Part shown: positions 12,970 through 56,327 of the stretch, piece by piece | Numbering within the stretch: the stretch's first letter is position 1 | Layout of the letters: every line of letters begins with the position of its first letter | Assembly (NCBI GenBank): GCA_001871445.1 | Contig: MNVD01000014.1 | Span: 28,776 to 92,775, forward strand | Source of the DNA: Candidatus Magasanikbacteria bacterium CG1_02_41_34 | Lineage (GTDB): Bacteria; Patescibacteriota; Patescibacteriia; Magasanikbacterales; UBA922 | DNA length: 64,000 nucleotides | Reading direction: 5' to 3' | Translations under genes and position numbers: made by a program | The notes under the pieces: model-generated | Database searches by the model: none | Told to the model about the DNA's origin: nothing | Seen by the model: only the letters and a program-made list of their open reading frames with translations

Positions 12970-13024
12970 CACGACGCAGCCTTTCTTTGATATTTCTGCC
13001 AAACTCCGCTATCATGATTACACT

Positions 13025-32613: not shown

Positions 32614-33459
32614 ATGGCAGAATCGCCAAATCCAAAACGAATAACTATTGGACAAAAGGTTGGTGTGACCTTTATGTTTTTGTTTGCATTTTTGGCACTT
32701 GGCATGGGGGTATTGCAACTCCGTACAACAGTCTATGGACCTTTTGTGAGTCAGACTCGTTCAAAAGTCAGTGCGGCTGAACAAGCGCAATTGCAATTTG
32801 ATGAATCTCTCAAACTTCAGCGTATTGATACTGACAAAGATGGCTTGAATGATTTTGAAGAATTAAATTTTTATCAGACCAGTGCATATTTGCCAGATAC
32901 GGATTCAGATGGTATCAGTGATAAAAAAGAAATCAACGATGGAACAGATCCTCTTTGCCCAGAAGGAAAAGATTGTGGGCTCGGTGCTGATGGGACAAGT
33001 ACAGAAACAGTAGATGGTGCGACATTGGAAAACCCAATTTTTGATAAAGCATTTCAGACAAGTGGTAATATGTTGGGAGCGGGACAAACAGGGGAGGCGC
33101 CTAGTATATTGGATTTGAATGCATTACTCGGAGATCCAACGCAACTACGCGCTGCGCTTCTTGCCTCTGGTCAACTGAGTGCAGAAGAACTCGCACAGTT
33201 CAATGATGCTCAACTCATTGATCTTGCACAGAATGCACTCAAGTCTCAATCTGTCTCTACACAACAAACGCAAGCACCTGTTGCTGTCTCTACACAAACA
33301 GATGTGACAGTAGAACAACTGCAAGCATTGCTTGAAAAGCCAGATGAATTGCGTCAGCTTCTTATTACAACAGAAAAAATGACTAAAGAACAACTTGATC
33401 AAATAGATGATGCAACACTCATCTCGGTCACGAAGGACATTATTGCAAAAAATCGCTAG
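32614..33459 (+). CDS. Membrane-anchored protein with thrombospondin-type-3-like calcium-binding repeats.
   Basis: DTDKDGLNDFEE, DTDSDGISDKKEINDGTDP. Extended -10 TGgTATACT at 32589-32597. Start at MAESP. Confidence 0.45.
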   Translation: MAESPNPKRITIGQKVGVTFMFLFAFLALGMGVLQLRTTVYGPFVSQTRSKVSAAEQAQLQFDESLKLQRIDTDKDGLNDFEELNFYQTSAYLPDTDSDGISDKKEINDGTDPLCPEGKDCGLGADGTSTETVDGATLENPIFDKAFQTSGNMLGAGQTGEAPSILDLNALLGDPTQLRAALLASGQLSAEELAQFNDAQLIDLAQNALKSQSVSTQQTQAPVAVSTQTDVTVEQLQALLEKPDELRQLLITTEKMTKEQLDQIDDATLISVTKDIIAKNR

Positions 33460-33463
33460 ATCT

Positions 33464-39400: not shown

Positions 39401-42400
39401 CATTGTTTGGAATACGATTTTTCGAGGAAGATCTTTTCACCGAGTAGTGAACCACGGTATGCGTGTCTCACTTGGTACCCGTCTGATAAAAGCTTCGGGA
39501 ATGTAGACACCCGAAATCTTTTTTCTGCAGCAGGGTATGATCCTGCCATTGATGCATCAACCAGTAGTGGAGATACCGGAGGACAAGTGTATTGTACAAA
39601 CAGTTTTGGAAGAAGTGCCGGTGCATATGAAGGAGATGGTAATCTCTTGATACATCAGTTGTATGGAGGAGGATCAATGAAGAACGCTCCTGGATTACCA
39701 ATCGCTGCCTATGCGTATGATAGTCAGTCTTGTGCTCCTTTGACTATAGGACCAAATTCTGATAATCCATTTTTTAAGCAAAAAGCAGACGGAAGTATAT
39801 ATCTTCCAGAGTCATGGAGTCAGGTTGTCGGCTGTTCAATAGACTGGTTTTCAAAAATAAATACCAACCCTTTTGCGGGTTATGTCTGTGGGGCTCTGTA
39901 TGCTCATTCCTATAGTCGATCAGGAAATATCGATCCAAGTTGTGGATTAACAACCATACCTGAATATACACGAAAAGACTCTCTCAATTTCCTCTACAAT
40001 CTTATGTCCGGATTCGGATGGGAATTTATAGATAAAAATGCTGTGGTATTGCGCGTTGAAGGAGATACTTCTAGTGAATATTCTACCACGGGTGGACACC
40101 ACTTCGGTTATTGGGGTAAAGAAGATACATATCTTGTCAATGCTTTGGTCCCCAGTATGTCGATAATCGCTCAGATGAGGGATACACAGACACTCATGCA
40201 TCCACCGAGATTTGAGCTTACTGATGGTACATTTTCTTTTGACAACGCTGTACCAGTTGGAACTGGGGGAAATTTTATAGGGGTAAAAACAGATACGTTA
40301 TGTTTGCGTGCTGGGGGCTGTCCTTTTTACGAAGATTGGCCGACGCTTGCAACAGAAACTGAGGGATATCTTAATATACAGGCATTGAATTCTGTATACT
40401 TCATACCGTTACGCTCAACAGCTCCGTACAGTTCCCCTGTCATCTTCCAACCTGCAATTCTAAGTAAAGATCTAAAAATTGATTTTAGGGGACAACTTGG
40501 CACGAAACCAGAAGTATCAATATTATCGGCCCCTGATATGGTGGGTATTCCGGTTGGCCCAGATGCCACAACCAAAAGTACAAAAACGGCTGTAACGTCG
40601 TATAAATTGGAAAGAGATACTGCAAGTAATATTCCGTGCGATGGATTAGTTTCTTTTTGTTCCTATAGTGGGGGTTCTGATCTTGGTCAGGGAGAAAAAT
40701 ATACCTATACACCATCTAACACAGCAAATACTGATGATGCAGTAGCCTTTATTCAGTCAAAAAGAAATGAAGTTGCGACACGGTATGTTGTAGTATACTA
40801 TCCTCAGGAGCAGAATCTTTTACCATCATTTGTCAAAAATTCACCCAGTGAAAAGTTTACGAAACCTACATCTATAGAAACAGACCCATTTTCCGCCCAA
40901 TGTGTCTTCGCGGTAGGGAGTACTGTAAAAACAGATTATTTCGCTATAGGAATGGACTTTAATAAAGATGGAGAATTTCTAGGATATATCTCACGTAATT
41001 GTGGATATTATGGTATGCAAATGGCTGTCATCGCAACAATGAAGGATCAGTGTAGTGAATTTGTTAGTGTGTACAGAAATGTTGATCCGACCACTGAAAG
41101 CAACAAAGCCTGGACAAACCGGGTATGGAAAGGAACACAATATACACTCAAGGCAAGTTACACTGCACAGGTGTCGCAAGATGCGCAACATCCTCCATTT
41201 GGATCGTCACCATTTACAGAACAAGATATTACCACTGATGGCGCTGATTATAGAGCACAGGCGGCACTGTTAGCCTCTGTATTTACGAATTCAAAATTTG
41301 GTTATCCGTTCTTCTGTTACCCAGGCAACATAGCCAGTAGAAGTGTATTTGGTGATACCTCTCGCTGCGCATCACTAGTAGATGATGGATTTGATGCCAA
41401 TACTGTAGAAGCGTTCAGTGTGTTTAGCAATAAGGTGATGGGGGGGGGGTATTTCGACGGACCGTTTATTCATCCTTTCAATGGAGAAGAACTTCTATCT
41501 AGATTGTTTGCAAAATATTATGTAAAGAATGTATTCCCATTTGATACTGCTGTATCACTTGATTCACAGCATGGAGATTTGTATTATACGGATCCAGATA
41601 TGATTGAAGGAGCACATCTACAATATCCTCAGATATATTCGTTGAATCCTATCACTTGTTTCCCAAGAGAAAGCGCGATAAATTGTTCTGTTGCAAAAGA
41701 AAATGCGTTTTCTATCGGCGAAGCAGACAACGAGCAATATATTGGGAAAGGTACATATTCGGCAAAAGCACGGTTTTTCGCTTTTGCCGATGACAATCGT
41801 ATGCCTATTCGGCGTGTCATGATTGATTGGGATGATGGGGATACCACCAATAAAGGTGTGTTTGGAATGTATAAAAATAAAAAACCATATTGTGAGCCGA
41901 GCGACACACCTCCTACAGAGACATCTCTTGGATATTGTCGCAACCAAGCAACACGGGAATTTACACTTGTGACATGTCAGCAAGATTTGGACTGTCCAAC
42001 AGATGGAGAATATCATTGTTTACATACGTGGAGCAATACTCCTGAAGATGTCCAATATGGTATAGATGAACAAGTAGGTGGTGCAGAGTTTGTAGCGCCA
42101 CGGTTTGGAAATATGCCACGTGCATGTGATGCAAAACCATTTGAATATTATCATGCCTATGGTTGTGACAATCCTACACAAACAATATCCATGGTTCGTG
42201 ATCAACTGACAGATATAACCTACAACAAACTTATTGAAAGTGGATTGAATGATGGTAGTAAGATTTGTGTCTACCAACCGAAAGTGCAGGTACTTGACAA
42301 CTGGGGGTATTGTAATGGTAGTTGTAATGGAGCAGGGAATACTGGGTGTTATAATGATGATGGAATAGGTGGTATATTAGAATGTGATGCACCTGATTAT

Positions 42401-42451
42401 AGTACTCTCCATTGGACACCGTATCAGGGAATTATCGTAATTATCCCATAA
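33464..42451 (+). CDS. Giant (2995 aa) secreted Cys-rich surface protein.
   Basis: Uninterrupted frame over 9 kb. N-terminal signal/TM helix with AAY cleavage-like site. Many Cys and Gly residues, and one homopolymer G10. Start placed 5 nt after the upstream stop. Confidence 0.7.
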   Translation: MNRQRSIKKIKKAQAYIFVSLFLSFQLSFFVMSATQVQAAYVDPGIINIDLPRKVSEIQESVSKSLLSGVLGSLVNMASYFMRTLAYDTASYVASGGKGQGSLIFEKPFGEYIAGVAANSVGEAIDSLGKGFGVNLCAPPDLRLQAQLKVGLDRIYNPVTAAGKSLGNTSGTSASGPQSSCSWQKLKENWSDGIDVGVDINVAADFASEVNVTETDFGYALSAFQQLDSLKATQEKAAELESLVGNGFKSVTDLVSGHVNTPAQQIQDETKALTAKHQGELSSQQIAGIYSSGLWQVIPTAASVFLNTLTSQLLNRLFTGGLVPSEKERGQGVADFYAINSVISQRQVAQRAFSFLTAKTGVKDPSEYDILAEFSVCPSSPGLNNCIMNNDMKTAIDRALIGKPLTLYDAVFKEGFISPNTPLISPRRTADNESLDCYKENLCYSNIQKMRKARIMPLGMEIAALRSDPDNPWTIGEVLQGFEKCPTLNVDGSITSDITNFPFCHLVNPNWILRAPDVRCENRVYSPELLVPESPRRHEDCVDISTCLTEDENGNCVGDKYYGFCTQEKNVWFFPGDTCEPAFASCKAYTNQETRTIVSYLSRTLEYGSCNENAVGCLPYVTEKKAGTEEWKGTKDSIVGDKLSGAMQVLYLNDRITNRENTCPDTADGCTKFVGAERNSMTGAYIQDPAKAYIQDTTRLRSLKKAPNYLGCYDTTFTENSPEVNFPTTPLEIAVLTDDPRCDAYASVCLPEEVGCEAYTPAGGGEAVPGVVGDNFCPAACVGYDTFRQEKTNFESSEYPLYFIPANGTECSAQHVGCDEFTNIDDVSQGGEQLEYYSYIKQCEEPTGDNRSVYYSWEGSESTGFVLRVHTLAKVGSDYEFIPSSLQADFPPESPAYADDSSANLLENDGLCNETLYTNVLSGVPDAPRAFADCRALYDAKGVAYYRLLAETVTVSSACHPIRKTASRLVVSDDITSANTCLRKNGYWDGSSCQVCFGGGNWVAQDGNATQGSCVYYAIDAPGESVSCPASANECRAYTGNAGNNVRPVFESGTDTFEPLGDDADSLSQAKSAWSPADQVSIAAEALQVTFNSLRVNGGAAANSISRSLPAGAFESNTAYQLTFWARGTAQTLSISLQQGDDTRSLTTDPVTNTNLPISISQTWRAYTVGPVIFTGDATAPLDLVFQRAGASNGIYFLDNVSLLRTDENTNRIKNSWKTVEGYDAPAECFADSQNPRGPFPGAALGCQEYTTSLGQTVYATGFERLCREKAVGCAPLWDTFNSDSTEAEVYNARCISGTLTQTRYSRNPVTAATTCTITVESSEYTCSIAAGESSCVIPGPIRLSSDELITPLSAPGTGILVIKEGSASALHFDNPSFFAIVDKSSVYIPADTPFESPVFLTDTPEYICADKYLGCRVTGLEEQHTPDNASAVSYSYTDQGVINLPSTYLGDQGILCVQDQVACSAFTTSDGSTSYFKDPAVNANKLCVYQAPQTNNVDAPEGWFLKSVGHCSQDDAILCDSNAACGEGNTCVEIGESEPCYPTYQTNLESYGLWSNGSQQYSGYVGECPATQNLCTELVDPYDVDTSGKNPDGKPYYVIYDDQVTKNADECGGQASLREGCALFDNTEVPTKSYDTDATYGSSEQRAAKGDINTLVATVSTDKNDANVLLKVQRNRECSEWLACESYEPIQTGDGKQIFACESFARCIAFDGVGCSSWATDNGSTKPSNTFLNLDVYISRDTSWNGAEYTGYSLYNRFGLGDLKIIKFSQSERFSNAGVDADNGYLGYVLSDTYLTDNQGDTCLNATVGDVCGINGEGRCINTQCVVPADGAFDAKDTTLSNIATALGVAECKVPPEQDSPFSFDVIPLIENRDKHGFANNNVTTDLVRYTFSHRPAEVNVCQSGDCTCNYVAVSYGSLVKDYWASDTYHKKSSDISLWGICTGASETEGDYCREDNDCSFGTCQKIDRIETQIGSTGHCLEYDFSRKIFSPSSEPRYACLTWYPSDKSFGNVDTRNLFSAAGYDPAIDASTSSGDTGGQVYCTNSFGRSAGAYEGDGNLLIHQLYGGGSMKNAPGLPIAAYAYDSQSCAPLTIGPNSDNPFFKQKADGSIYLPESWSQVVGCSIDWFSKINTNPFAGYVCGALYAHSYSRSGNIDPSCGLTTIPEYTRKDSLNFLYNLMSGFGWEFIDKNAVVLRVEGDTSSEYSTTGGHHFGYWGKEDTYLVNALVPSMSIIAQMRDTQTLMHPPRFELTDGTFSFDNAVPVGTGGNFIGVKTDTLCLRAGGCPFYEDWPTLATETEGYLNIQALNSVYFIPLRSTAPYSSPVIFQPAILSKDLKIDFRGQLGTKPEVSILSAPDMVGIPVGPDATTKSTKTAVTSYKLERDTASNIPCDGLVSFCSYSGGSDLGQGEKYTYTPSNTANTDDAVAFIQSKRNEVATRYVVVYYPQEQNLLPSFVKNSPSEKFTKPTSIETDPFSAQCVFAVGSTVKTDYFAIGMDFNKDGEFLGYISRNCGYYGMQMAVIATMKDQCSEFVSVYRNVDPTTESNKAWTNRVWKGTQYTLKASYTAQVSQDAQHPPFGSSPFTEQDITTDGADYRAQAALLASVFTNSKFGYPFFCYPGNIASRSVFGDTSRCASLVDDGFDANTVEAFSVFSNKVMGGGYFDGPFIHPFNGEELLSRLFAKYYVKNVFPFDTAVSLDSQHGDLYYTDPDMIEGAHLQYPQIYSLNPITCFPRESAINCSVAKENAFSIGEADNEQYIGKGTYSAKARFFAFADDNRMPIRRVMIDWDDGDTTNKGVFGMYKNKKPYCEPSDTPPTETSLGYCRNQATREFTLVTCQQDLDCPTDGEYHCLHTWSNTPEDVQYGIDEQVGGAEFVAPRFGNMPRACDAKPFEYYHAYGCDNPTQTISMVRDQLTDITYNKLIESGLNDGSKICVYQPKVQVLDNWGYCNGSCNGAGNTGCYNDDGIGGILECDAPDYSTLHWTPYQGIIVIIP

Positions 42452-42463
42452 GCAAAATTAAAC

Positions 42464-42500
42464 AAAAAACGACCATTAATATAAAAATGGTCGTTTTTTT
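42464..42500. terminator. Bidirectional rho-independent terminator.
   Basis: A-run, cgaccatt...aatggtcg stem, then TTTTTTT. Confidence 0.55.
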
Positions 42501-43588: not shown

Positions 43589-44053
43589 ATGGAGGAATCA
43601 ACCACAAAAAAACTTACCCTTGACGACAAAGTGGATATTCTTATAGAAAAAGTGGATGGGAATACCAAAAACATAGACTCTCTCACAGATACCCTTTCAG
43701 AATTTATGGGCTTTGTTCGGGATAACATGGCGACAAAAGATGATATTGAAGACCTTAGGAAAGAGGTAAAAGGTGATAGTGCTACCCTCAGGACAGAATT
43801 AAAAGGCGAGATGGCTGAGATGAAGGAAGAAATTGGGGACTTGCGTTTGGAGATGCAAGCGGGCTTTCGTGGCATAGAAAAGGAGTTAATGGACATCAAA
43901 GCATCGCTCGACCGTCTTGAGAAAAAAACACAAGAAGATGATGATGCAACAGTACAAGAAATCTTCCTTCTCAAAAAACGGGTCGCCCAGGTTGAGAAAG
44001 AATTAGTACTTCTCAAAAAGGATCAAAAACATCACGTAACACATAGCACGTAA
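43589..44053 (+). CDS. Small coiled-coil protein (154 aa).
   Basis: Heptad-like K/E/L-rich sequence. The last codons are encoded by the CACGTAACA repeat array. Flanked by the 30-bp inverted-repeat pair. Confidence 0.45.
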   Translation: MEESTTKKLTLDDKVDILIEKVDGNTKNIDSLTDTLSEFMGFVRDNMATKDDIEDLRKEVKGDSATLRTELKGEMAEMKEEIGDLRLEMQAGFRGIEKELMDIKASLDRLEKKTQEDDDATVQEIFLLKKRVAQVEKELVLLKKDQKHHVTHST

Positions 44054-44565: not shown

Positions 44566-47500
44566 ATGCTTGCACGGATAACACACTACAATCGAGCCTT
44601 TTTTTCGCTATGTAAGAAACTTCTCCCGAAAGGACGTGCGAAGTTTTTTGTATTGCCGGTTGTTGGTGCGATTGCAAGTATTGGTATTTTCGTGGTCGTC
44701 GATCCTGCACATGCACAGGGGTTTTTAGAAGATATCATAAATGGCATGATGGTCTTTTTTAGCTGGGTCATGTTTATTCTTGCGCGATTGTTTATTGGTA
44801 TTACGATTTTTGCTCTCAAGTTTTTTATAGAAGTCGCATCATACAACAATTTTATTAATACGCCTACCGTCAAGATCGGTTGGTTCCTTGTGCGTGATGT
44901 AGCAAATATGTTTTTTGTGGTACTGCTTCTCGTCATTGCCTTTGGGACGATCCTAGGCCTGGAGCAATATGAATGGAAAAAGACACTGATCAAGTTGATT
45001 CTTGCGGCAGTCTTTATCAATTTTTCCAACATGATCGCACAGCTCATCATTGATGTGGCGCATGTCTTTACTATTACCTTTGTCAATGCAATATCAGCGA
45101 CAGCGGGAGGTAATATTATTCAGTTGTTCAATATCGACTCGGTGTATAAAATCACCGGGGCAGACAAGCTCGGCGTAGGGGGGGATCTTAAAATAGAGGC
45201 ATTTGCCGCTTCGGTAGCGTCATTTTTGCTGGCACTCATCATGATGACGACGATGGGCGCGTTTGCGATCGTCATGGCGGCTCGCATGGTCATTTTATGG
45301 GTACTCATCATTTTGTCTCCTCTCGCCTATATTTTTCAAGTTATTCCCCAAACACAAAAGTATGCTCAAGAGTGGTGGAGTGAATTTACCAATCATGTCA
45401 TCGTCGCGCCAGTTATGGTGTTTTTTCTCTGGCTTGCGTTTGCGACACTCAATAGCTCCGTACCACAGCTTGATTTTGGAAGTGCTGGAGCAGAAGCGAC
45501 AAGCGTTATAGGGAGTGGGGCACAAGTCGTTGACGCGCAGAAGAAATTGAGTATTTCAGATGCAACGACCTGGGAGAATCTTGCGAGCTTTATGATTGCT
45601 ACGGTCTTTCTTATTATTGGTCTGAAAACTGTGCGGAATCTCGGTGTTGTTGCTGGTGGTTTGACCTCGAGTGCAACAGGATTTGTGAAGAATGTTGCGA
45701 CTATTGCGACGGGAATTACTGCTGCTCGTGCTGTTGGTAGATATGCAAAGAAGAAGGGTGATGAAAATTTTCTTCAGCCTGTACGTGAATTTGGTGATCG
45801 TGTCAAGAAACGTGTCAATATTGCCAGAGCAAAAGTGCCGTATTTACGAAAAATTCCGTTTATTGGGAGAATGGGTCAATTGCGTCGTCAAAAATTAAAT
45901 GAGGAACTCGACCGAAATAGTAAAATGACAGATGAAAATATTATTGATACTATAAGTCGAAAGGAAAATATAGGGACGTTGGATAGAATTGGAAATAAAT
46001 TTGGGTTTGGTATTGAGTCGTGGAAGAAAAAAAGATATAAGCTCGAAGCTGAATCTGATATTATACAAGCAGAAAAAGCAGAATCAAAACGAGAGCGTAA
46101 AGCAAAAGCTGCGGCTGCTTTTGCTGATAAAGCAAATAAAGTAATCAAAGAAAATGGCGGAGAAAAACAAATTGCAGCTGAAAAAGAAAAAGCGCTAAAC
46201 ACTTTTCGAAATGCTGAGGAGAATAAAGATGAGCTTGCTGAAGTTGGAGATGACTGGGCGAATGGAAAAGTGAATGCTGACGCCATGAAAGCGCAGGCAA
46301 TACGGACTCTCCAAGAGGAAACAGAAGAAATTTTGAAAGAAGGATTTGAGGCTACTGATGATGGTAAAAAATTGGAAGCCCCTGTAGCTGCTTTGCAGAC
46401 GCATCTTCAGGGTGTTACAGAAACGTATAAAACAGAATTTCAAAAATATTTGAATGGGCTTGCCGCAAAAGATTTGGAACCAATCATAGCAGATGATTTT
46501 ACTGATAAAGACAAACAAAAAATTGCTGATGCAAGAAAGGCTGATCCAACAAAACAGGATGCTGAAATTATACAAACATTAGTGCGTAATGGACAAATTG
46601 CTGTCGATCCTGAGAGTGAAACAGGAAAAGCGCTTCGTGAAGAATTTGAACAAACGACGACTGGCAAAGGAACTATGGCTGCTATTGCTGGTGTAAACAC
46701 TAACTTAGAAGCATCCCGTACTGCGAAACAGGTCGCGCTTGACGCGTATAAGAAAGAAAACGGTTCAAAAGCAGAAGAAAAAGCATTAGCAAAGTCTGGT
46801 TTTAAAGAGAGAGTCGCTAGTGCAAAGAAAAAAGTAATAAATGAAGAAAACGTAAAACGTCGAGAACAGGCAGAAAGGGCGTTTGGCGAAACAGAACCTG
46901 CAAAGAAGCTTGTAGCAAAGTCTCAAGAAAATATTCTTCAGTTAGCAAATGATATCGCTAAAGGTAAAACAAAATTGCCTGGAAATCCAGATCTCAAAAC
47001 ACGACAAGGTATTGCCGAGCGATTGCGTATGCAGGCAAAAACTATGGGTGCTGACAGACAAGAAGCCGAGAAAAAGCGAGCAGATGCTCAAATTGCTGGT
47101 ACATTACAGAAAACTGAATTTGGCCAAGCTATGATGATGCAGCAGGATATCGCAGAGAGGGCAGAAGCTGCTTCTAAAGATACGGCAGAGATATTTAAGA
47201 ATGAAAAAATTACCAAAGAACTCAAACATACAGCAGAATTGTTAGCCCAAAAAATGAAACTCGGGGGAGGCGAAGCTGCTGCGGCGATTGATAAAGCGTT
47301 GAAAAAAAATATATATGCTCAGTCTGCCGAGCAATCTCAAATACTCGAAAAGACTAAGTTTGATAGAGGACGACAAGACACATTGCTGAAAGAAGCTGCG
47401 AATGGGCTTGCTGTTGAGAAAAAAAATAATGGAGAGGCTACTCCTACTCAGGCTTTGATTCCTTATATAAAACGAGACATCGAAGCATTGAGCGGACAAG

Positions 47501-48813
47501 AAGCCGATGCTGCAGGAGCATATGCTCAAAAGTTATTGGCTCATATTTTGTATGATGCTTCTGCTGGAAAAATGACAGGAGAACAGCACGCTGCTCTTAT
47601 GACGACTGTTATGAGTCTTGCCAAAGGTGGATATCTGGACGATGCGGTAGGATCTGTGTTGAAAAATGTTGATAAGTTAGACACGGGCGTAATAACGGAA
47701 GATTCTGATGAAGGAAAACAAACCAAAAATTTGAAGACTATTTTTAACCAGTTGGGTATTTTGCAGAAAGATGCACAAGGTGCATGGATATACAATAGGA
47801 CCAACGCAGCACGATTGCAACAGCTTGTGGTGTCTGGTGGAGACGCTGCGCTTGTGAGTGACAATAAAATGATTAGTGATATCCAGCAACAAGCACAAAG
47901 AGATGGTAGCGTAAAACTCAAAAATGATCAGAAAATTGAAGCAGCTGATTCGTACCAAGCAATGCTTGAAAAGTTAAGTGCCGCGGGTATGTTGTTATCA
48001 GGCACCGTAGATAAATTCAAAGAAAAACTTGAGGCTTCACAAGAGTTTATGCAAGAAGGGGCAAGTTATTTCAAACGAGAGGCACTCAATACCAATCATC
48101 CTGAAGTCGGTGGTCATTTTAAATATGATGATGATCTTGGCATGTACCGCATGTCGACAGTAAAGGAAGCTGATGATTTGATGGCGGCAGAACAGGCAAA
48201 GAGAAAAGGAAAATTAGCAACACAAATTCATGGATTGGGAACAATTGGTTTGGTAGATGGTCAGTTGAAAGCTATTGATCGGCAGGCCGCGACTAGTATC
48301 TTGGAAGAATTGAAGTCTTCTCAGGCAACCAGACAAATGCCACAGAGAACTGTCAATCGTATGTTGGGGTATGAGCAAAATGAAGAGATGGCAACCGATG
48401 CACAGGGAAATGTGATAGTAGGAAAGAGTGACGCGTATATAGACAAAAATCATGGAAATTTTGATAATTATATGAAGAACATTGTTCTTCCTATGCTTCT
48501 TGCCAACTCTGAATCACTCAAGTACATCGCGAGAGAAAAGGCACAACATGTGGATACCATAAGTTCTGATCGTGGTATGGCTCGAATATCTATTGCTGGT
48601 CATATAACAGGAGAAACCAATAGCGCTTTATTGAAAGACGTTATTAGGTATGCAACAGAAAACGGACGTAACTTATTGAATGATGCTGATTTAACCACGT
48701 TGCGACGAGGTGTGGAAGCATCGGAGAAAAAGGAAGCTACGTTAGATAAGAGGGGAAGGGTAAGTAAGGCTGATCAAGAAGCAGAAGAGGAACGACAATC
48801 TCGCGAGTCTTGA
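44566..48813 (+). CDS. VirB6/TrbL-like polytopic membrane protein with a roughly 1000-aa K/E/A-rich coiled-coil C-terminal extension (1415 aa).
   Basis: Signal peptide (AHA-QG), then 6-8 hydrophobic helices over the first 400 aa, then a low-complexity charged alpha-helical tail. Extended -10 TGaTATACT at 44537-44545. Confidence 0.5.
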   Translation: MLARITHYNRAFFSLCKKLLPKGRAKFFVLPVVGAIASIGIFVVVDPAHAQGFLEDIINGMMVFFSWVMFILARLFIGITIFALKFFIEVASYNNFINTPTVKIGWFLVRDVANMFFVVLLLVIAFGTILGLEQYEWKKTLIKLILAAVFINFSNMIAQLIIDVAHVFTITFVNAISATAGGNIIQLFNIDSVYKITGADKLGVGGDLKIEAFAASVASFLLALIMMTTMGAFAIVMAARMVILWVLIILSPLAYIFQVIPQTQKYAQEWWSEFTNHVIVAPVMVFFLWLAFATLNSSVPQLDFGSAGAEATSVIGSGAQVVDAQKKLSISDATTWENLASFMIATVFLIIGLKTVRNLGVVAGGLTSSATGFVKNVATIATGITAARAVGRYAKKKGDENFLQPVREFGDRVKKRVNIARAKVPYLRKIPFIGRMGQLRRQKLNEELDRNSKMTDENIIDTISRKENIGTLDRIGNKFGFGIESWKKKRYKLEAESDIIQAEKAESKRERKAKAAAAFADKANKVIKENGGEKQIAAEKEKALNTFRNAEENKDELAEVGDDWANGKVNADAMKAQAIRTLQEETEEILKEGFEATDDGKKLEAPVAALQTHLQGVTETYKTEFQKYLNGLAAKDLEPIIADDFTDKDKQKIADARKADPTKQDAEIIQTLVRNGQIAVDPESETGKALREEFEQTTTGKGTMAAIAGVNTNLEASRTAKQVALDAYKKENGSKAEEKALAKSGFKERVASAKKKVINEENVKRREQAERAFGETEPAKKLVAKSQENILQLANDIAKGKTKLPGNPDLKTRQGIAERLRMQAKTMGADRQEAEKKRADAQIAGTLQKTEFGQAMMMQQDIAERAEAASKDTAEIFKNEKITKELKHTAELLAQKMKLGGGEAAAAIDKALKKNIYAQSAEQSQILEKTKFDRGRQDTLLKEAANGLAVEKKNNGEATPTQALIPYIKRDIEALSGQEADAAGAYAQKLLAHILYDASAGKMTGEQHAALMTTVMSLAKGGYLDDAVGSVLKNVDKLDTGVITEDSDEGKQTKNLKTIFNQLGILQKDAQGAWIYNRTNAARLQQLVVSGGDAALVSDNKMISDIQQQAQRDGSVKLKNDQKIEAADSYQAMLEKLSAAGMLLSGTVDKFKEKLEASQEFMQEGASYFKREALNTNHPEVGGHFKYDDDLGMYRMSTVKEADDLMAAEQAKRKGKLATQIHGLGTIGLVDGQLKAIDRQAATSILEELKSSQATRQMPQRTVNRMLGYEQNEEMATDAQGNVIVGKSDAYIDKNHGNFDNYMKNIVLPMLLANSESLKYIAREKAQHVDTISSDRGMARISIAGHITGETNSALLKDVIRYATENGRNLLNDADLTTLRRGVEASEKKEATLDKRGRVSKADQEAEEERQSRES

Positions 48814-48856
48814 TGTCCATTGGTAACAACACTATATCATTGCAATTAGTCTTCGT

Positions 48857-50356
48857 ATGATGTTAGAAGAAAAACAATTTGAACAATTTCACACGAGTGA
48901 CTTTATAAAAAGTGTGGAGGCATTTCGTGCACTTGAACAATTTTTTGCAGGGCAAACTGTTGTTCGTTTTTCAGAAGATCCACAGTCATTCCCTGTCATG
49001 ATTCGTGATATTGCTGATATCGCAGATACCTATACAAAAGAAACGTCGGAAGCCTATCCGTTTGTCCAAGAAAAGAGTGTGCTGGAAATGTTTGATATGG
49101 ATACGGTCACCACATTTGTGAAGACATGGAATGCCTGGATTGCTTCATATACACAGATACCCGACACATCGTCAATTGAAGATCAGACGTATCGAGTGGT
49201 TTCTTCTGCCGACATGAATAATTTTGCAAAGAAGTGCGGTGTTGCTCCAGACAGTATCAATTTTTTGACTACCCAGTATGATGGCTTTTCCGATGTGGTA
49301 AAACAGAATATCTCACGTACATTTGGAGACGTTGAAAACAGTGGTGAGGATATGATAGCTCAGATAGAACTTCTTGCTGGATTTTTGAAAGTTTCTTCTA
49401 TACAAACATATTCGACAGATGAATTTAAAGCAGTACTTGCTGGAGATATTTCTACATACGAAGGACCTCGTCTTGCTGCTACGATTCGGTATATGCTCGA
49501 TAATGATGAGGGACTAGCGTTAAGTGCGATTGCGTATGAACATTTGCATGTGGTGGATATCTACAAAAAATCGACATATACTTGGGACGAAGCTTTTTAT
49601 CTGACGGCGTTGCTCCATGCACCGTTCATCCATTTCCGACGGTTGTATTGGGAATTTCAAGAATTTTGGCTGATGTTTTATTTCGTCAAGGCACAAATTG
49701 CTGGTGTTCCATTGACACATATTTTGCAAGACTATTTGTATCAAGAGACAGCGACACTCCTAGAGTATGCAGAAGAAAATATTTTTTTGATGAAGAGTCT
49801 TGATAAAAATAAGGAAATGTTGCCTCTTGGATTGGATGGAGAAGCCATTGCGCTCAGTGCTTTGTATAAGGATTACATGCTTCGATTGGGAGACAAATTC
49901 AATGATGGTTACCGAAGAGAAGAATATATCCAAGAGCATGTGGTACACGTGAAACACAAAGAATTATGGAAGCATGTTCTCAGAACAGTGTTGTATATCT
50001 ATAGCCATATAAAATCTGTAGATCTTATTGAAAAAAATAGGGGATCCGAACCGACAGAAAAAGAAATATATGACAATCAACTTCGACATCTCTTGACGTG
50101 GTGGATGGATGAAGATTTTTGGCAACTGATTGCAGACTTCTTTACAAAACCACACACGCCACCTGCTATTGTCCCCTTGCACGCAGTTATAGCACAGATT
50201 CAACAACACGAATCACTCGAAGATCCCAAAGTGCAAGATAAAGCTGTCCGATTCAACGAATTTTTGCGTGAGCAGGGTGTGTTAAAAGAGGAGCAAGATA
50301 TTGTTGTGTATAATGAACAGACAACGACATTTGAATGGAATAAAGATATTTTCTAA
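48857..50356 (+). CDS. Hypothetical cytoplasmic protein (499 aa) within the T4SS-like locus.
   Basis: Clean ORF; no NTP-binding or other motif recognised. Confidence 0.4.
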   Translation: MMLEEKQFEQFHTSDFIKSVEAFRALEQFFAGQTVVRFSEDPQSFPVMIRDIADIADTYTKETSEAYPFVQEKSVLEMFDMDTVTTFVKTWNAWIASYTQIPDTSSIEDQTYRVVSSADMNNFAKKCGVAPDSINFLTTQYDGFSDVVKQNISRTFGDVENSGEDMIAQIELLAGFLKVSSIQTYSTDEFKAVLAGDISTYEGPRLAATIRYMLDNDEGLALSAIAYEHLHVVDIYKKSTYTWDEAFYLTALLHAPFIHFRRLYWEFQEFWLMFYFVKAQIAGVPLTHILQDYLYQETATLLEYAEENIFLMKSLDKNKEMLPLGLDGEAIALSALYKDYMLRLGDKFNDGYRREEYIQEHVVHVKHKELWKHVLRTVLYIYSHIKSVDLIEKNRGSEPTEKEIYDNQLRHLLTWWMDEDFWQLIADFFTKPHTPPAIVPLHAVIAQIQQHESLEDPKVQDKAVRFNEFLREQGVLKEEQDIVVYNEQTTTFEWNKDIF

Positions 50357-50358
50357 CT

Positions 50359-51570
50359 ATGGCAGAGCCGACCGTCCTCATAAAAAAAGCCGATGGAACG
50401 AGCGAGCGAGTGCCGTTGTCTTTGCTTAGAAAAAAAACAAGCGAGAATACTACTCCACCAACCCCAAACAACCCCATACCCACAGAAGAAAAAATATCGC
50501 AACCTGCAACCAGTGATCAGAAACCAGTTTTAGACGTATCCTCAGAAAGTTCTGATGCAGCAGAACCAAAAGAATTTGTTCCACCCAACAGCGAACACCG
50601 TTCAGCACCCCAAACGCCAAATCCTGCACCCACAAAAAAACAAACATTTCTCACCGCACCACCAGACCACGACACGCCAAGACAGACAGACGTATCTTCA
50701 AAAAGCGATCTCCCCATGGAAGAATCACCACACGAACTCGCAACCACGACGCCTGTTTCTGATTACTTCACTGATCTTGCAAAAGCACATGAGTGGAACG
50801 AACGTGATCATAGATCTCCACTCGAAGAGACAATCAATCATGAAGATGTAACAAATCCTCTTTCAACGACGATGCCGTCTGCCCGGTTTGAGGATGTTAC
50901 TATGGTGACAAAAAAACTTTCATTTTCAATACCAGTAGATCTTGAAAGTCGATTGCATTCTCTGATACAGTCACGACTCAAAGATATCCGAAGTGATGAA
51001 CAAGTTATCGACTATGCGACACGTCCTACAGAACATGGTGGTCTTGCGCTCACGAGTGAACAGGCACAGGAGCTCATACAAGTAATTCAGACGTCACTCG
51101 AGACATCTCGACAAGAACATATCCCCGCACCAAGAAGAACGGTCCAACAAACACCCTCAGCACAAAAAACATCGACAATTTTCGCAGACGCACCAACAAT
51201 GTCGCCATCTTCTGTGGGAAAAGACACGTCGTTTACAGACATTCATGCTCCAGAACCACTACAAAAAATTGTCGGGCCACTCGAGGAAATAGGGCAGATC
51301 ACATTGACTGATTTTCGTCGCTATGGAAAAGATCCCGCAAAAGCTACCGCAATACTGAAAGCGAAAATAACTGTTATCCGAGATGAATCTTACCTTGAGT
51401 TTCAAAAAGTAAAAGTGGCATGGACACAAAGTCCGCTGTATGGGCAGTATCTCTCACATATCGCACAGTCGCTCTCAGAAAAAACACCGCTTGCCATCTC
51501 AGACAGCGATGATATGTCTCCTGATGATATGAAAGAAATTGCCGTGTTTAGTGCGATGTTACGCATGTAA
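50359..51570 (+). CDS. Hypothetical Pro/Thr/Ser-rich protein (403 aa).
   Basis: Start 3 nt after the upstream stop. Low-complexity N-terminal half. The stop is embedded in a CACATAACA array. Confidence 0.4.
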   Translation: MAEPTVLIKKADGTSERVPLSLLRKKTSENTTPPTPNNPIPTEEKISQPATSDQKPVLDVSSESSDAAEPKEFVPPNSEHRSAPQTPNPAPTKKQTFLTAPPDHDTPRQTDVSSKSDLPMEESPHELATTTPVSDYFTDLAKAHEWNERDHRSPLEETINHEDVTNPLSTTMPSARFEDVTMVTKKLSFSIPVDLESRLHSLIQSRLKDIRSDEQVIDYATRPTEHGGLALTSEQAQELIQVIQTSLETSRQEHIPAPRRTVQQTPSAQKTSTIFADAPTMSPSSVGKDTSFTDIHAPEPLQKIVGPLEEIGQITLTDFRRYGKDPAKATAILKAKITVIRDESYLEFQKVKVAWTQSPLYGQYLSHIAQSLSEKTPLAISDSDDMSPDDMKEIAVFSAMLRM

Positions 51571-51728
51571 CACATAACACATAACACATAACAAGAGGCT
51601 GATTATGGGATTGGGATACTATGCAATGGATAACATCGCATGATAAAGATCCATATATTCCTCAGCCAACCCTCGCATTACAAACTTGTTACGTGCTACG
51701 TGCTACGTGCTACGTGTTACGTGAGTAT

Positions 51729-52163
51729 ATGCAACAATTCGTTGTTCCACAATTTATCGATGTTGAAGACAAGATTTTTGGTCCGATTACCACGAGGCAA
51801 TTTGTTATTTTACTTGCTGCCGGCATTACTATTTTCGGAACATATAGACTTGCCGATACGACATTGTTTATTTCGATTGCGGTTCTTGTAGGTATTATTG
51901 CGATCGTCTTTTCGTTTGTCAGAGTAAATGGTCAGGTGTTTCATGTTTTTCTTCTCAATATTATTCAGACCATGAAACGTCCAGGACTTCGTATTTGGCA
52001 CAAATCATATACAGACAAAGATTTGGAATATTTTATGCACAGTGGTGATGACGATGAAATTTCTGATCATGTAATCAAAAAGGCTGTGCACAAACAACAT
52101 ATTAAAGACCTGTCGCTGGTAGTAAATACAGGGGGATATTATAGACCTGATGAACATCTGTAG
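51729..52163 (+). CDS. PrgI/VirB3-like small membrane protein of type IV secretion systems.
   Basis: MQQFVVPQFIDVEDKIFGPITTRQFVILLAAG followed by two TM helices, which matches the PrgI-family N-terminus. The ORF track start at 51621 reads through the repeat array and is rejected. Confidence 0.5.
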   Translation: MQQFVVPQFIDVEDKIFGPITTRQFVILLAAGITIFGTYRLADTTLFISIAVLVGIIAIVFSFVRVNGQVFHVFLLNIIQTMKRPGLRIWHKSYTDKDLEYFMHSGDDDEISDHVIKKAVHKQHIKDLSLVVNTGGYYRPDEHL

Positions 52164-52223
52164 ATTGGGTGACCTTTCGTTCTGTTCATGATATACTTGA
52201 CACACTGCGTGTCAACGCATTGT

Positions 52224-52907
52224 ATGAAAGATACCAAAAAAAAAGCAAAGAAACATACGCGTCCTGCGACACAAACCTATCTTCCAATTGCGGAGATTCG
52301 AGATGGCGTTGTCGTATTGAAGGATGGAACGCTGAGAAAAGTGCTGATAACATCGAGCATAAATTTTGCATTAAAATCAGAAGATGAACAAAACGCGCTT
52401 ATTTCTTCGTATGTTAGCTTTCTCAATTCGCTTGAATTTCCTATACAGATTGTTGTACAGTCGCGTCGTTTGCAGATCAAGCCATATCTTGCAAAACTGG
52501 TAGAAAAAGAAAAAAAACAAACAAGTGAGTTGTTGCGAGTACAAATTGCCGATTATCGTGCCTTTGTGGAGGAGCTTGTAGATATCGGGCAGATCATGAC
52601 AAAACGGTTTTATGTGGTTGTTCCGTATGATTCATTATCAAACAGAAAAAAAGGTTTTTTTGCTCAATTTAAGGAAGTTTTGAAGCCTGCGTTCACGGTT
52701 CGACTAAAGGATGAACGATTTCAAAAGAGAAAAGAAGATTTGGAAGTACGTGTGCGTCAGGTGATGGGAGGTCTCGATGGCATGTCACTCCAGACCGTCG
52801 AGCTTGACACCGAGGCACTCATCGAGCTCTACTATATGGGCTACAATCCCGACATTGCCTTTGCCGAAAGCCTCGGAGATGTCGATGCATTGCAGATAGA
52901 CACATAA
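52224..52907 (+). CDS. VirB4/PrgJ/TraC-type conjugative ATPase, N-terminal domain, encoded as a separate ORF.
   Basis: YLPIAEIRDGVVVLKDGTLRKVLITSSINFALKSEDEQNALISSYVSFLNSLEFPIQIVVQS is the characteristic VirB4 N-terminal segment. Stop TAA at 52905-52907. Confidence 0.6.
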   Translation: MKDTKKKAKKHTRPATQTYLPIAEIRDGVVVLKDGTLRKVLITSSINFALKSEDEQNALISSYVSFLNSLEFPIQIVVQSRRLQIKPYLAKLVEKEKKQTSELLRVQIADYRAFVEELVDIGQIMTKRFYVVVPYDSLSNRKKGFFAQFKEVLKPAFTVRLKDERFQKRKEDLEVRVRQVMGGLDGMSLQTVELDTEALIELYYMGYNPDIAFAESLGDVDALQIDT

Positions 52908-52978
52908 CACGAATCACGTAACACATAGCACGTAACAATTCTTAAAAAATGTGTTATGTGCTACGTGATATGTGATTC
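52908..52978. repeat. 71-bp palindromic element built from CACGTAACA / CACATAACA repeats, separating the two VirB4 ORFs.
   Basis: Left arm cacgaatcacgtaacacatagcacgtaaca, AT-rich loop aattcttaaaaaat, right arm tgttatgtgctacgtgatatgtgattcgtg. About 26 of 30 arm positions are complementary. Confidence 0.7.
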
Positions 52979-52990
52979 GTGAAAAATAGT

Positions 52991-54859
52991 ATGCCATTCA
53001 AACCACTCACAAGAAAAACAGCCAAAAAAGAGCGTGGTCATGACCCGAAAAAGGATTTGACCAAGGATGATCTTATCACGCTCGAAGAAGAGCGGCTGTA
53101 TCGAGAGGGTACTGTAGCAATCAAAGATTTGATTGCACCATCCGCTTTTCGTGTAGAATCAAACTTTCTTCAGCTTGGTGAAGTTTTTTTGCGCACCATG
53201 TATGTCATTACGTATCCAAGATACATTTCTGTTGGGTGGAGTTCGCCAATTTTGAATTTGAATTCAACCATGGACCTCTCGATGTTTTTTTATCCTGTAG
53301 AATCTGCATTGATTCTCAAACAACTCAAGAAAAAAGTTGGTGCACTCCAAGCACAGTTATCAGGTGATGCAGAAAAAGGGGCTCCACGTGATCCTCTGAG
53401 AGAAACAGCACTTCGTGATATCGAGCAACTCCGTGATGATTTGACGCAAGGTATTGAACATTTTTTTCAATTTGCTTTTTATGTAACGATTTATGCAAAT
53501 GATAGAAAGGAACTTGATACGTTGACAGAAGATTTAGAAAATATTTTTGGCACAAGACTTATTTATACCAAAAATGTTCTGTTTCAGTCAGAACAAGGAT
53601 TCACCTCCACTATGCCGCTCGGGATTGATGATTTGATGGTGGCATTCAATATGAATTCGTCTCCTATTGCATCATCATTTCCATTTATGTCGTCAGAACT
53701 TACCAGTGACGATGGTATTCTCTACGGCATCAATCGGCACAATAATAGTTTGATTTTGTTTGATAGATTTTCACTCCAAAATGCGAACATGGTTGTCTTT
53801 GCAACGTCTGGTGCTGGAAAATCCTATGCTGTAAAGCTCGAAGTGTTGCGTAGTCTTATGATGGGGATCGATGTGATTGTTATCGACCCAGAACGTGAGT
53901 ACGAGCATCTTTCCGAAGCTGTAGGTGGCACATATATCAATATTTCGCTTGCTTCAGAAGGAAAGGTTAATCCGTTTGATTTGCCGCGTCCTGTTGGAGA
54001 ACAAGTGTCAACAGAAGATATCATTCGTAGTGCGGTCATCACGGCAAAAGGATTACTTCGTATCATGCTTGGCACGGTGACGGCGACAGAGGATTCTCTT
54101 CTTGACCGCGCTCTTCTCGAGGCATATGCCAAAAAAGATATTACCTCGTCATCTGACCTTGCGACAGTGGAGCCACCCATTATGCAGGATCTGCTCGATG
54201 TTCTCGAAGGTATAGATGGAGCAAGTGAATTGGTTATTAAACTGAGCAAATATACCGACGGGACCTTTGCAGGATTGTTCAATGCACCTACCAATGTGGA
54301 CGTGAATAATGCACTTGTTATATTCAGTGTCAGAGATCTTGAGGATGAATTACGTCCAATGGCGATTTATACGTTGGTAAATTATATTTGGAATATTGTA
54401 CGCAGTGAACGAAAAAAACGGTTGCTTATTATTGATGAAGCCTGGTGGCTCATGCAACATGAAGACAGTGCGAAGTTTATTTTTGCACTGGTAAAACGTT
54501 GTCGAAAGTATTATCTAGGCGTGACAACAATCACACAGGATGTCAATGATTTTTTGAGTTCTCAATATGGACAAGCGATTGTGACGAACTCTGCCTTACA
54601 ACTTTTGCTCCGACAGTCGCCAGCATCTATAGATATGATCCAAAAGACATTTTTGCTTACAGAAGGAGAAAAATATTTATTGCTTGAAGGAGCTGTAGGT
54701 GAAGGTATATTTTTTGCTGGATTAAAGCACGCAGCTATCAAAGTCGTTGCATCGTATACAGAGGATCAGCTCATTACGTCAGATCCAGAGCAACTTATGC
54801 AGATAGAACAAGCCAAAAAAGATTTTGAACAACAAGTTATTAGCCCTGGTAGATCATAA
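52991..54859 (+). CDS. VirB4/PrgJ/TraC-type type IV secretion ATPase, ATPase domain.
   Basis: Walker A FATSGAGKSY and Walker B LLIIDEAWWLM (the DEAW signature). Preceded by the VirB4 linker region P.AF....LQLGEVFLRTMYVITYP. Alternative GTG start at 52979. Confidence 0.8.
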   Translation: MPFKPLTRKTAKKERGHDPKKDLTKDDLITLEEERLYREGTVAIKDLIAPSAFRVESNFLQLGEVFLRTMYVITYPRYISVGWSSPILNLNSTMDLSMFFYPVESALILKQLKKKVGALQAQLSGDAEKGAPRDPLRETALRDIEQLRDDLTQGIEHFFQFAFYVTIYANDRKELDTLTEDLENIFGTRLIYTKNVLFQSEQGFTSTMPLGIDDLMVAFNMNSSPIASSFPFMSSELTSDDGILYGINRHNNSLILFDRFSLQNANMVVFATSGAGKSYAVKLEVLRSLMMGIDVIVIDPEREYEHLSEAVGGTYINISLASEGKVNPFDLPRPVGEQVSTEDIIRSAVITAKGLLRIMLGTVTATEDSLLDRALLEAYAKKDITSSSDLATVEPPIMQDLLDVLEGIDGASELVIKLSKYTDGTFAGLFNAPTNVDVNNALVIFSVRDLEDELRPMAIYTLVNYIWNIVRSERKKRLLIIDEAWWLMQHEDSAKFIFALVKRCRKYYLGVTTITQDVNDFLSSQYGQAIVTNSALQLLLRQSPASIDMIQKTFLLTEGEKYLLLEGAVGEGIFFAGLKHAAIKVVASYTEDQLITSDPEQLMQIEQAKKDFEQQVISPGRS

Positions 54860-54870: not shown

Positions 54871-55467
54871 ATGTTGGATATTCGTCAACGTCTGTTTCTC
54901 ATTGTAAGTATTGCTGTTCTACTTGTCTTGGCAATTGTCTTGAGTATTCTGGGAATAAAAAAATACAATGATACCACGTCTGTGAAGCTAGATATTATAC
55001 AGCAAGAATCTGGTAGTGGTGAAGAGCAGCCTCAAATGTATGATGCATCACTCAATTTGCAGCCAGTCATAGGTGATCCTCAGCAGCTTGGAAGTGTACT
55101 TGCAAATGAAGACGAAACCGAACGTTTTGTACGGCAGCGTTCCATTGATTTTGTAGAACGTTTTCTTTCTTATTCCAATCAATCACGGAATACTCATATT
55201 CGTGATGTACTTCCTCTCGTCACACCTGAGATGGCGTCTTGGATAGAGACGCAGTCGCAACACTATAGTGATATCTATCAAGGTAGTACCACACAGGTCA
55301 TCGTGAGTCGTATCGAAAATGTGACAGACCAGACTGCCTCAGTTCATGTAGAAGCACAACAACATCTTGAATCAAAAGATATCGATGAACGGGTATATCA
55401 TGTGGGTCGTGTAGAACTCGTCGAGACAAATGGTGTATGGTATGTCGATGGGTTGTATTGGGAATAA
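54871..55467 (+). CDS. Membrane-anchored hypothetical protein; candidate VirB8/PrgL-like component.
   Basis: One N-terminal TM helix plus a compact C-terminal domain. Assignment is by size, topology and position only. Confidence 0.3.
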   Translation: MLDIRQRLFLIVSIAVLLVLAIVLSILGIKKYNDTTSVKLDIIQQESGSGEEQPQMYDASLNLQPVIGDPQQLGSVLANEDETERFVRQRSIDFVERFLSYSNQSRNTHIRDVLPLVTPEMASWIETQSQHYSDIYQGSTTQVIVSRIENVTDQTASVHVEAQQHLESKDIDERVYHVGRVELVETNGVWYVDGLYWE

Positions 55468-56190: not shown

Positions 56191-56240
56191 GTGTTTTTTT
56201 GTATAAAAAAAACAAAGTTGTATATGACTTTGTTTTTTTG

Positions 56241-56327
56241 CGGAGAGTGGAGGATTCGAACCCCCGGTCCTCTTTCAAGGACGACAGTTTAGTAAACTGC
56301 TGCTATAGACCGCTCAGCCAACTCTCC
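56241..56327 (-). tRNA. Class II tRNA (long variable arm), Ser-type; anticodon reads ACU in my fold, which is unusual.
   Basis: GGAGAGTTGGCTGAGCGGTCTATAGCAGCAGTTTACTAAACTGTCGTCCTTGAAAGAGGACCGGGGGTTCGAATCCTCCACTCTCCG. Discriminator G, T-loop TTCGAAT. Anticodon stem GCAGT/ACTGT with loop TTACTAA. Confidence 0.55.

Follow-up and report, generated by a model that had tools for sequence, protein, structure and literature searches.

The window analysed here is a stretch of 64,000 nucleotides of contig MNVD01000014.1 from Candidatus Magasanikbacteria bacterium CG1_02_41_34, and all positions given are positions within it. It encodes the VirB6 protein of a type IV secretion system (T4SS) that Patescibacteria, here Magasanikbacteria of class ABY1, carry on their chromosome and that lacks a relaxase. 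The protein is of the 'extended VirB6' type, in which a polytopic membrane domain carries a long hydrophilic tail. This tail and the gene that follows (gene A) form a hypervariable cassette exchanged by recombination, whereas the membrane domain and the VirB3, TrsD and VirB4 proteins of the same operon are nearly invariant. The tail ends in a C-terminal domain (CTD) which, as judged from profile searches and a structural model, is folded and represents a new domain family. As its distribution among loci shows, the CTD is a modular accessory part of the T4SS, attached to or detached from VirB6 by gene fusion and fission.

The original prediction, made from the letters of this stretch, had placed the reading frame exactly. 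Its product is identical to a hypothetical protein already deposited from a metagenome-assembled genome (MAG) of Candidatus Magasanikbacteria and has more than 700 detectable homologs. Conservation mapping distinguishes four regions, the transmembrane (TM) block (residues 1-365), a basic segment (366-480), a spacer (481-944) and the CTD (945-1395), to which the features of the protein correspond as follows.

44566..48813, + strand: VirB6 open reading frame (ORF), 1415 aa, uninterrupted
44566..45663, + strand: VirB6/TrbL membrane domain, residues 1-366 (hydropathy, AlphaFold2 model, Pfam TrbL, Foldseek)
45664..46005, + strand: basic juxtamembrane segment, residues 367-480 (net charge; co-conserved with the TM block)
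46006..47397, + strand: variable all-helical spacer, K/E/A-rich, residues 481-944 (AlphaFold2 model)
47398..48750, + strand: conserved alpha/beta CTD, residues 945-1395 (predicted local distance difference test, pLDDT, 94-97; alignment)
48751..48813, + strand: disordered charged C-terminal end, residues 1396-1415, and stop codon (pLDDT 57-61)

The TM block can be aligned in 115 of 119 homologs, with about 50% identity. Its first helix resembles a signal peptide, with a basic n-region, a hydrophobic core of 19 aa (residues ~26-46) and then a PAHA/QG boundary at which A50 hardly varies. After it come about seven more hydrophobic helices, the last of which ends near residue 362. Hydropathy and the AlphaFold2 model thus give eight hydrophobic helices within residues 26-362, where at least five are expected of a VirB6/TrbL protein, in agreement with the signal peptide and six to eight N-terminal helices originally proposed (here within ~365 aa). 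The Pfam TrbL family (PF04610) matches residues 125-316 with 24.5 bits against a gathering cutoff of 25.9 (E=2.7e-5). The match recurs at the same position in six of seven relatives and passes the cutoff in two of them (P0002, 27.4; P0005, 26.1), and precomputed TrbL_3 (PF19590) annotations exist for the window protein and for homologs, among which TrbL is annotated as well. When the model of the N-terminal domain was compared with the PDB using Foldseek, the top five matches were all TrwI/VirB6 chains of R388 (probability 0.99-1.00), although with modest scores (E 5e-3 to 2e-2, 291-319 aligned columns, TM-score 0.31-0.38). Moreover, homologs of VirB3 and VirB4 are encoded alongside: PrgI, TrsD and VirB4 lie downstream in the same operon. 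Together, the recurring TrbL match, the structural matches and the operon context bear out the VirB6/TrbL assignment.

The VirB6 gene heads this operon. The genes downstream of it follow one another at distances of 3-71 bp, no strong terminator intervenes, and their order is kept across 65 complete loci, as far as each contig reaches.

48857..50356, + strand: gene A, 499 aa, soluble, acidic (no TM segment or signal peptide, net charge -34)
50359..51570, + strand: gene B, 403 aa, soluble, acidic (present in every locus)
51621..52163, + strand: PrgI, VirB3-like (Pfam PF12666, E=3.2e-11)
52188..52907, + strand: TrsD/TraC-like protein, homolog of the VirB4 N-terminal domain (NCBIfam TrsD and VirB4 N-terminal matches)
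52979..54859, + strand: VirB4 ATPase of the CD1110 family (NCBIfam NF045971, 337.5 bits against a cutoff of 325; Pfam TraG P-loop and AAA_10)
54871..55467, + strand: conserved bitopic 198-aa protein with an N-terminal TM helix
55474..56190, + strand: ComF-family protein, last gene of the operon (TIGR00201 comF, E=1.2e-33)

VirB6 proteins that combine at least five hydrophobic helices with a large hydrophilic central or C-proximal domain are recognised as a class, the extended VirB6 proteins (PMC12857230, PMC7648143), and the window protein belongs to it by virtue of its 1050-aa hydrophilic C-terminal region. The part beyond residue ~365 contains 13.2% A, 11.0% K, 9.4% E and 6.1% Q, so that the long K/E/A/Q-rich hydrophilic tail suggested to follow the first 400 or so residues is present. 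A TM block with a very long charged tail is the norm of the family, with a median tail of ~1070 aa and a K+E content of ~20% among the 120 best homologs. When species-representative genomes were scanned with the N-domain alignment, 291 proved to contain a relative; the best 80 are all Magasanikbacteria or other Patescibacteria MAGs. The census of 65 complete species-level loci relies on profile hidden Markov models (HMMs) built from few sequences and on our own ORF calls. The tail measures at least 578 aa in all 65 of these Magasanikbacterial loci and ranges up to 1807 aa, with a constant composition (K+E ~20%, A ~11-12%). In view of the known class and of this universal occurrence in the lineage, the description of the architecture as unusual for VirB6 was overstated. 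Many of the species-representative MAGs with the Magasanikbacteria-type operon (L011, L012, L014, L017, L019 and others) are titled 'uncultured Gammaproteobacteria bacterium'; these titles are evidently taxonomic mislabels in public records.

The CTD is modelled as a mixed alpha/beta globular domain with high confidence. It is found C-terminally in about half of the homologs, at ~25% identity, and its alignment contains 13 invariant positions: G956, D1025, D1026, G1072, Y1130, K1170, H1178, D1188, K1212, G1232, R1261, G1286 and G1337. An exhaustive HMMER search of 1.84 billion cluster representatives with the CTD profile detected only 145 proteins. Profile searches revealed no relative in Pfam, NCBIfam, PHROG or among PDB sequences, the CTD not having been fold-searched in isolation. 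Readings of its histidine motifs as HNH-like or phospholipase D (HKD)-like were rejected on inspection because motif spacing and conservation do not match.

Weak matches to the CTD profile define a family of soluble proteins of 615-757 aa, which share the His/Asp/Lys/Arg motifs of the CTD and align with it in a profile-profile comparison (hhalign probability 98.4%, E=8.6e-15, 263 columns). In three loci (L005, L007 and L008) such free-standing CTD-like genes lie directly downstream of an extended VirB6 whose tail has no CTD. The two arrangements are colinear: VirB6 with spacer and CTD, then A, B and PrgI in the window; VirB6 with spacer alone, then the CTD-like gene, A, B and PrgI in the three other loci. 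It is this occurrence as a separate soluble protein, encoded right after VirB6 in sister lineages, that identifies the CTD as a modular accessory part of the machine. Across the census the CTD is fused in 28 loci, split in six and absent from 31. In one further arrangement (L066) the VirB6 gene is itself split inside the spacer, into products of 690 aa and of 1181 aa with the CTD; this is either an alternative fission point or a frameshift or assembly error. In L008, a split-type locus, an ISL3-family transposase gene (12100-13332, - strand) immediately follows a truncated 115-aa ORF at the PrgI position, where it appears to break up the operon.

The hypervariability of the tail is evident from comparison of closely related loci. 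The closest relative of the window locus is L009, of the same lineage as P0002. Between the two, amino acid identity reaches 97-98% for VirB4, 96% for TrsD and 89-90% for residues 1-480 of VirB6; it is 80-87% for PrgI and 82% for the 198-aa protein, and falls to 73% for A, 68-71% for B and 38-39% for the VirB6 tail. At the DNA level the divergence forms a block:

46268..48868, + strand: divergence from L009 (map of blastn high-scoring segment pairs), beyond which DNA similarity resumes at gene A

Similar patterns were observed in other pairs. L052 and L057 share 94% identity in the TM block and 99% in VirB4, as against 21% in the tail. L070 and L078 are identical in the TM block and in VirB4 (100% each), and their tails are 60% identical. 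In the latter pair, divergence at four-fold degenerate sites amounts to 45% in the tail compared with 2-14% in the flanking genes, with sharp edges at residue ~440 and where gene B begins. Such a difference implies a deeper ancestry of the tail and hence allelic replacement. The breakpoint differs from pair to pair, lying at residue ~440 in L070/L078 and at ~567 between the window and L009. Furthermore, trees of the CTD and of the TM block disagree: the window CTD is only 37% identical to that of its sister, with which it shares a 90% identical TM block, and the sister's CTD is 47-48% identical to the CTDs of proteins whose TM blocks are only 46-49% identical. For the pair formed by the window and L009 the signal is less clear. 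Synonymous sites in the flanks are already ~50% diverged, and weak constraint could therefore explain much of the 39% tail identity, although divergence at four-fold degenerate sites in the tail is higher (69%). All sequences compared come from MAGs, which entails some risk of assembly artefacts, but the mosaic pattern recurs in independent assemblies.

Gene A shares this behaviour: A diverges fast, B less so. The position of A is occupied in all loci, either by A itself or by a divergent form, A' (hhalign probability of A' against A, 97.8%), and in some loci a long A paralog stands in tandem with a second one of ~320 aa. An initial association of A with the CTD only (29 of 34 loci with a CTD against 0 of 31 without, counts which ignore phylogenetic kinship) was dropped, as loci without a CTD have A' at this position. 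Every locus thus has a member of the A superfamily, and it is only the subfamily that varies with the type of tail. A is not a paralog of the CTD (hhalign probability 0.1%). No Pfam, NCBIfam, PHROG or PDB-profile relative was found for A or B, and no toxin, enzyme or immunity family was recognised in the CTD, its free-standing homologs, A or B.

The segments that link the TM block to the CTD evolve very differently. The juxtamembrane segment is 85% identical to that of P0002, as against 41% for the spacer, which is the least conserved region of the protein and varies from ~250 to 900 aa across homologs. The tail had been described as a low-complexity coiled coil of some 1000 residues with internal repeats. 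The AlphaFold2 model of residues 396-1415 (mean pLDDT 81.9) is indeed helical through ~480-960, but the last ~450 residues are globular, so that a uniform coiled coil does not hold. Within the spacer, the model contains many separate helices of 20-47 residues resembling antiparallel hairpins, the longest of which would extend ~7 nm. Sustained heptads were not found: 3.5-residue Fourier periodicity exceeds that of shuffled sequences only at ~569-640. Nor is the tail of low complexity, its Shannon entropy over 40-aa stretches averaging 3.57 bits compared with 3.61 in the TM block. Self-BLAST revealed no internal repeats, Tandem Repeats Finder reported only a 29-bp array, and each of the peptides once quoted as repeats occurs in a single copy. 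The tail matches no SMC-like, tape-measure, phage or TolA-like rod family in Pfam or PHROG, and the TM block is N-terminal; a TM block elsewhere, or a tail from an SMC-like or tape-measure family, would have told against the original proposal. PDB profile matches to TolA and polyQ proteins are purely compositional. A single-alpha-helix (ER/K) spacer was also considered and rejected because the K+E+R content is only ~25-35%. A conserved acidic or basic charge signature of the kind found in T4SS substrates was sought at the C-terminus and was not detected across the family.

The tail is predicted to lie in the cytoplasm, a location that we regard as probable. Over 51 homologs, the N-terminus has a net charge of +4.8, loops L1, L4 and L6 carry net negative charge, and the 80 residues past the last TM helix carry a net charge of +8.3 (+3.2 and +5.1 per 40-aa stretch). 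Whether the first helix is uncleaved with the N-terminus inside (8 TM helices) or is a cleaved signal peptide leaving the N-terminus outside (7 TM helices), the C-terminus would be cytoplasmic. This is also the topology of canonical VirB6, with the N-terminus outside and the C-terminus in the cytoplasm (PMC6120205). The free-standing CTD homologs, A and B have neither a signal peptide nor a TM segment. The sole cysteine of the window protein is residue 16; its tail has none and family tails average 0-0.3, in contrast to the 106 cysteines of an adjacent surface protein of 3014 aa.

Other features of the locus concern the secretion machine and its surroundings. The VirB4 function appears to be split over two genes (52188-54859), the first encoding the 239-aa TrsD/TraC-like protein and the second the 626-aa VirB4, in all loci examined; PF26593 TraC-like matches occur in orthologs of the former. 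The bitopic 198-aa protein, with a TM helix and a domain of ~150 aa, directly follows VirB4 in more than 40 loci. Its architecture resembles that of VirB8/PrgL, a component reported mostly missing in Patescibacteria, but neither a PDB profile search nor Pfam supports a relationship. The ComF gene is present in all loci that extend that far. No VirB2-like pilin gene was recognised in the window, in which no search aimed at pilins was made and small ORFs were not screened, and no coupling protein, relaxase or integrase is present in the annotated 64 kb. Otherwise the window consists of chromosomal housekeeping genes (RNase III, NusB, QueA/Tgt, UvrD, S7, EF-G, RF1, KsgA, BipA and tRNAs).

Upstream of the operon, the 3014-aa protein (33407-42451, + strand) has an N-terminal signal anchor and a net charge of -139; genes of similar size (~2600-3100 aa) are found at the corresponding place before the extended VirB6 gene in L003, L004, L005 and L007. 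This giant protein is probably a surface adhesin of the same locus. Further upstream, with ksgA and the giant gene lying between it and the T4SS operon, is a gene for a secreted M23 peptidase of 1004 aa (28584-31598, + strand), a candidate counterpart in function to the cell-wall hydrolase VirB1. The interval from the giant gene to the operon contains an element resembling a bidirectional terminator, a perfect hairpin with a 14-bp stem (42464-42499) bordered on both strands by runs of A and T. A charged helical protein of 154 aa is encoded just upstream of VirB6 (43589-44053, + strand) and shows weak matches to coiled-coil families (SF-assemblin, apolipoprotein and NheC-like). On the other side of the operon, ARAGORN predicts a tRNA-Ser with anticodon ACT (A34; 56240-56327, - strand) adjoining tRNA-Ser(GCT) and tRNA-Ser(TGA). 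An A34 serine tRNA is unusual in bacteria.

The system to which the window protein belongs has been described. The Patescibacterial T4SS (PMC12102498, PMC10633639) is the same system, with its monoderm-type (MPF-FATA-like) VirB4, TrsD, PrgI/VirB3 and VirB6, the absence of a nearby relaxase or coupling protein, and a chromosomal context with ksgA and, in ABY1, comF. The association with comF in ABY1 loci was included in the description by Quinonero-Coronel et al. 2025 (PMC12102498). The Saccharibacterial counterpart is essential for epibiotic growth of Southlakia epibionticum (Wang et al. 2023, PMC10633639). In the literature searched, no description seems to exist of the CTD family, its fusion and fission, genes A and B or the hypervariable nature of the tail: a text search of PMC12102498 and PMC10633639 revealed no mention of these or of a C-terminal extension of VirB6.

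The likeness to canonical VirB6 (A. tumefaciens VirB6; R388 TrwI, PDB 7O3V/8RT9) lies in the fold of the membrane domain, the TrbL signature, the association with VirB3 and VirB4 and, as predicted for the window protein, an outside N-terminus and an inside C-terminus (PMC6120205); canonical VirB6, however, measures ~260-300 aa and is tailless. VirB6 proteins of the Rickettsiales (Anaplasma VirB6-3/-4, Rickettsia RvhB6) are likewise far above canonical size, with hydrophilic extensions flanking the TrbL/VirB6 domain, and they too belong to obligately host-dependent bacteria with reduced genomes. Their extensions are repeat-rich, occur in 4-5 tandem paralogs and have been found experimentally to be surface-exposed (PMC7648143), whereas the window VirB6 is a single-copy protein without repeats, whose folded, non-repetitive CTD is predicted to be cytoplasmic. 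TraG of the F plasmid and SXT also combines a polytopic VirB6-like N-terminal domain with a large hydrophilic C-terminal domain, and the latter confers specificity, in entry exclusion with TraS (PMC7648143). However, the TraG C-terminal domain is periplasmic and shares no sequence or Pfam similarity with the tail studied here, and TraG systems are diderm, whereas the window host is monoderm, its locus chromosomal and relaxase-less, and its tail far more variable. Beyond TrbL, the window protein has no Pfam or NCBIfam match, and its extension shows no sequence relationship to TraG C-terminal domains or to Rickettsial repeats.

The layout of VirB6 and gene A also matches that of polymorphic cassettes, with a conserved N-part, a sharply bounded variable C-part and a co-varying downstream gene. 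Such an arrangement of a conserved delivery part, a hypervariable C-part and a downstream partner is familiar from contact-dependent inhibition (CDI) and Rhs toxins and from the evolved VgrG proteins of type VI secretion systems. The comparison is an analogy from general knowledge and implies no membership of these groups: no toxin or immunity family was found, the downstream gene keeps to one fold superfamily, and the location is predicted to be cytoplasmic.

The interpretation that we tentatively prefer, with slightly less than even confidence, is that of a VirB6 carrying a channel-tethered docking or specificity module in the cytoplasm, a function that we infer. By homology to TrwI/VirB6, residues 1-365 build the base of the translocation channel. 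The tail would hold the module at the cytoplasmic entrance to a T4SS for which no coupling protein is encoded nearby, and the hairpin spacer would keep it clear of the VirB4/TrsD ATPase layer. Together with the soluble proteins A and B, the module would recruit the substrate or a partner machinery, for which DNA-handling proteins, for instance the ComF of the operon, are possible candidates. Several points weigh against this proposal. The topology is a prediction with some ambiguity, the helix count of 7-8 depending on residues 135-187 and 208-259, and there are precedents for extracytoplasmic extensions in the periplasmic C-terminal domain of F TraG and the surface-exposed Anaplasma VirB6-3/-4 (PMC7648143). 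If the R388 architecture applies, five tails of ~1000 aa would crowd the centre of the VirB4 ring. Allelic replacement is unusual for a purely internal scaffold and more typical of proteins that meet other cells. The 31 of 65 loci without any CTD indicate that this domain is not essential to the core function of the machine. Finally, the CTD has no sequence or structural relative from which a biochemical function would follow, and no P-loop was found in it, apart from one weak GxxxxGKS-like string at residue 1281.

In the main rival explanation, which is possible if somewhat unlikely, the tail or the CTD would begin at the cytoplasmic mouth of the channel and would itself be cargo, cleaved or threaded through the T4SS and then delivered or exposed to the host bacterium, a fate proposed for extended VirB6 of the Rickettsiales and for F-plasmid TraG. 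It would be a polymorphic module for host interaction, exclusion or effector action, with A as its co-varying chaperone, adaptor or immunity partner. A shuffled tail and A flanked by nearly invariant machine genes fit this rival well and recall effector/immunity or TraG/TraS modules. The tails exchange unrelated C-termini (the CTD, a CTD subtype best matching the profile of the free-standing family, or neither), and the subfamily of A follows. In Anaplasma, the C-termini of extended VirB6 proteins lie exposed at the surface, and release of such C-termini into target cells has been proposed (PMC7648143). With no coupling protein or relaxase, protein delivery is moreover a plausible role for the system (PMC10633639). 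On the other hand, none of the tails shows a recognisable toxin, enzyme or effector family, the C-termini have no conserved charge signal such as that of T4SS substrates, and the boundary of the variable region has no cleavage motif, breakpoints lying at ~440 or ~567 depending on the pair. In addition, A and A' share one fold superfamily, whereas immunity proteins change fold with their toxin.

A simpler, though improbable, explanation would make the tail mainly a weakly constrained spacer or ruler without specific binding, whose length keeps its end or bulk beyond the VirB4/TrsD layer and whose rapid divergence reflects relaxed selection on charged helical sequence. A composition that stays constant while sequence and length (578-1807 aa) vary widely, the particularly low conservation of the spacer and the 39% tail identity between the window and L009 would all be compatible with it. 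Drift, however, does not account for the tail of L070/L078, where synonymous divergence of 45% against 2-14% in the flanks requires allelic replacement. A spacer with a range of 250-900 aa is hardly a precise ruler, and the CTD is confidently folded, has invariant polar residues and is retained as a separate gene when unfused. Least supported, and highly improbable in our estimation, is the extracellular coiled-coil fibre or ruler originally imagined to span a periplasm-like space, cross the wall or reach a neighbouring cell. The long helical hydrophilic region does have hairpin or coiled-coil-like structural matches and a composition resembling the envelope-spanning domain II of TolA; F TraG and Anaplasma VirB6 have extracytoplasmic extensions, and the lifestyle of Patescibacteria is epibiotic. 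Nevertheless, positive-inside statistics and the canonical topology place the tail inside the cell, its C-terminal third is globular, and neither sustained heptads nor a single long helix (maximum 47 residues) is present. Free-standing CTD homologs, A and B lack export signals, and the scarcity of cysteines in the tails (0 in the window, 0-0.3 in the family) contrasts with the 106 of the neighbouring surface protein.

By analogy with the polymorphic systems, it may be speculated that the tail and A are a shuffled T4SS specificity cassette, an 'evolved VirB6' whose new-fold CTD would be presented to or delivered into the host and would set host range or self/non-self discrimination, although we consider this unlikely.

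No T4SS before that of Patescibacteria had been shown to be essential to the bacterium carrying it (PMC12857230). The substrate and mechanism of the Patescibacterial system are described as unknown (PMC10633639), as is the role of the extra domains of extended VirB6 proteins (PMC12857230). The present analysis provides handles on both in the form of a domain map of the tail, a new CTD with invariant His, Asp, Lys and Arg residues, and the universal soluble operon proteins A and B. Hypervariability and recombination are confined to the tail and A in a machine that is otherwise extremely conserved. The diversifying part of a secretion machine usually sets its specificity for cargo, partner or target cell; the tail and A are therefore likely to be a specificity determinant in the interaction between candidate phyla radiation (CPR) bacteria and their hosts.

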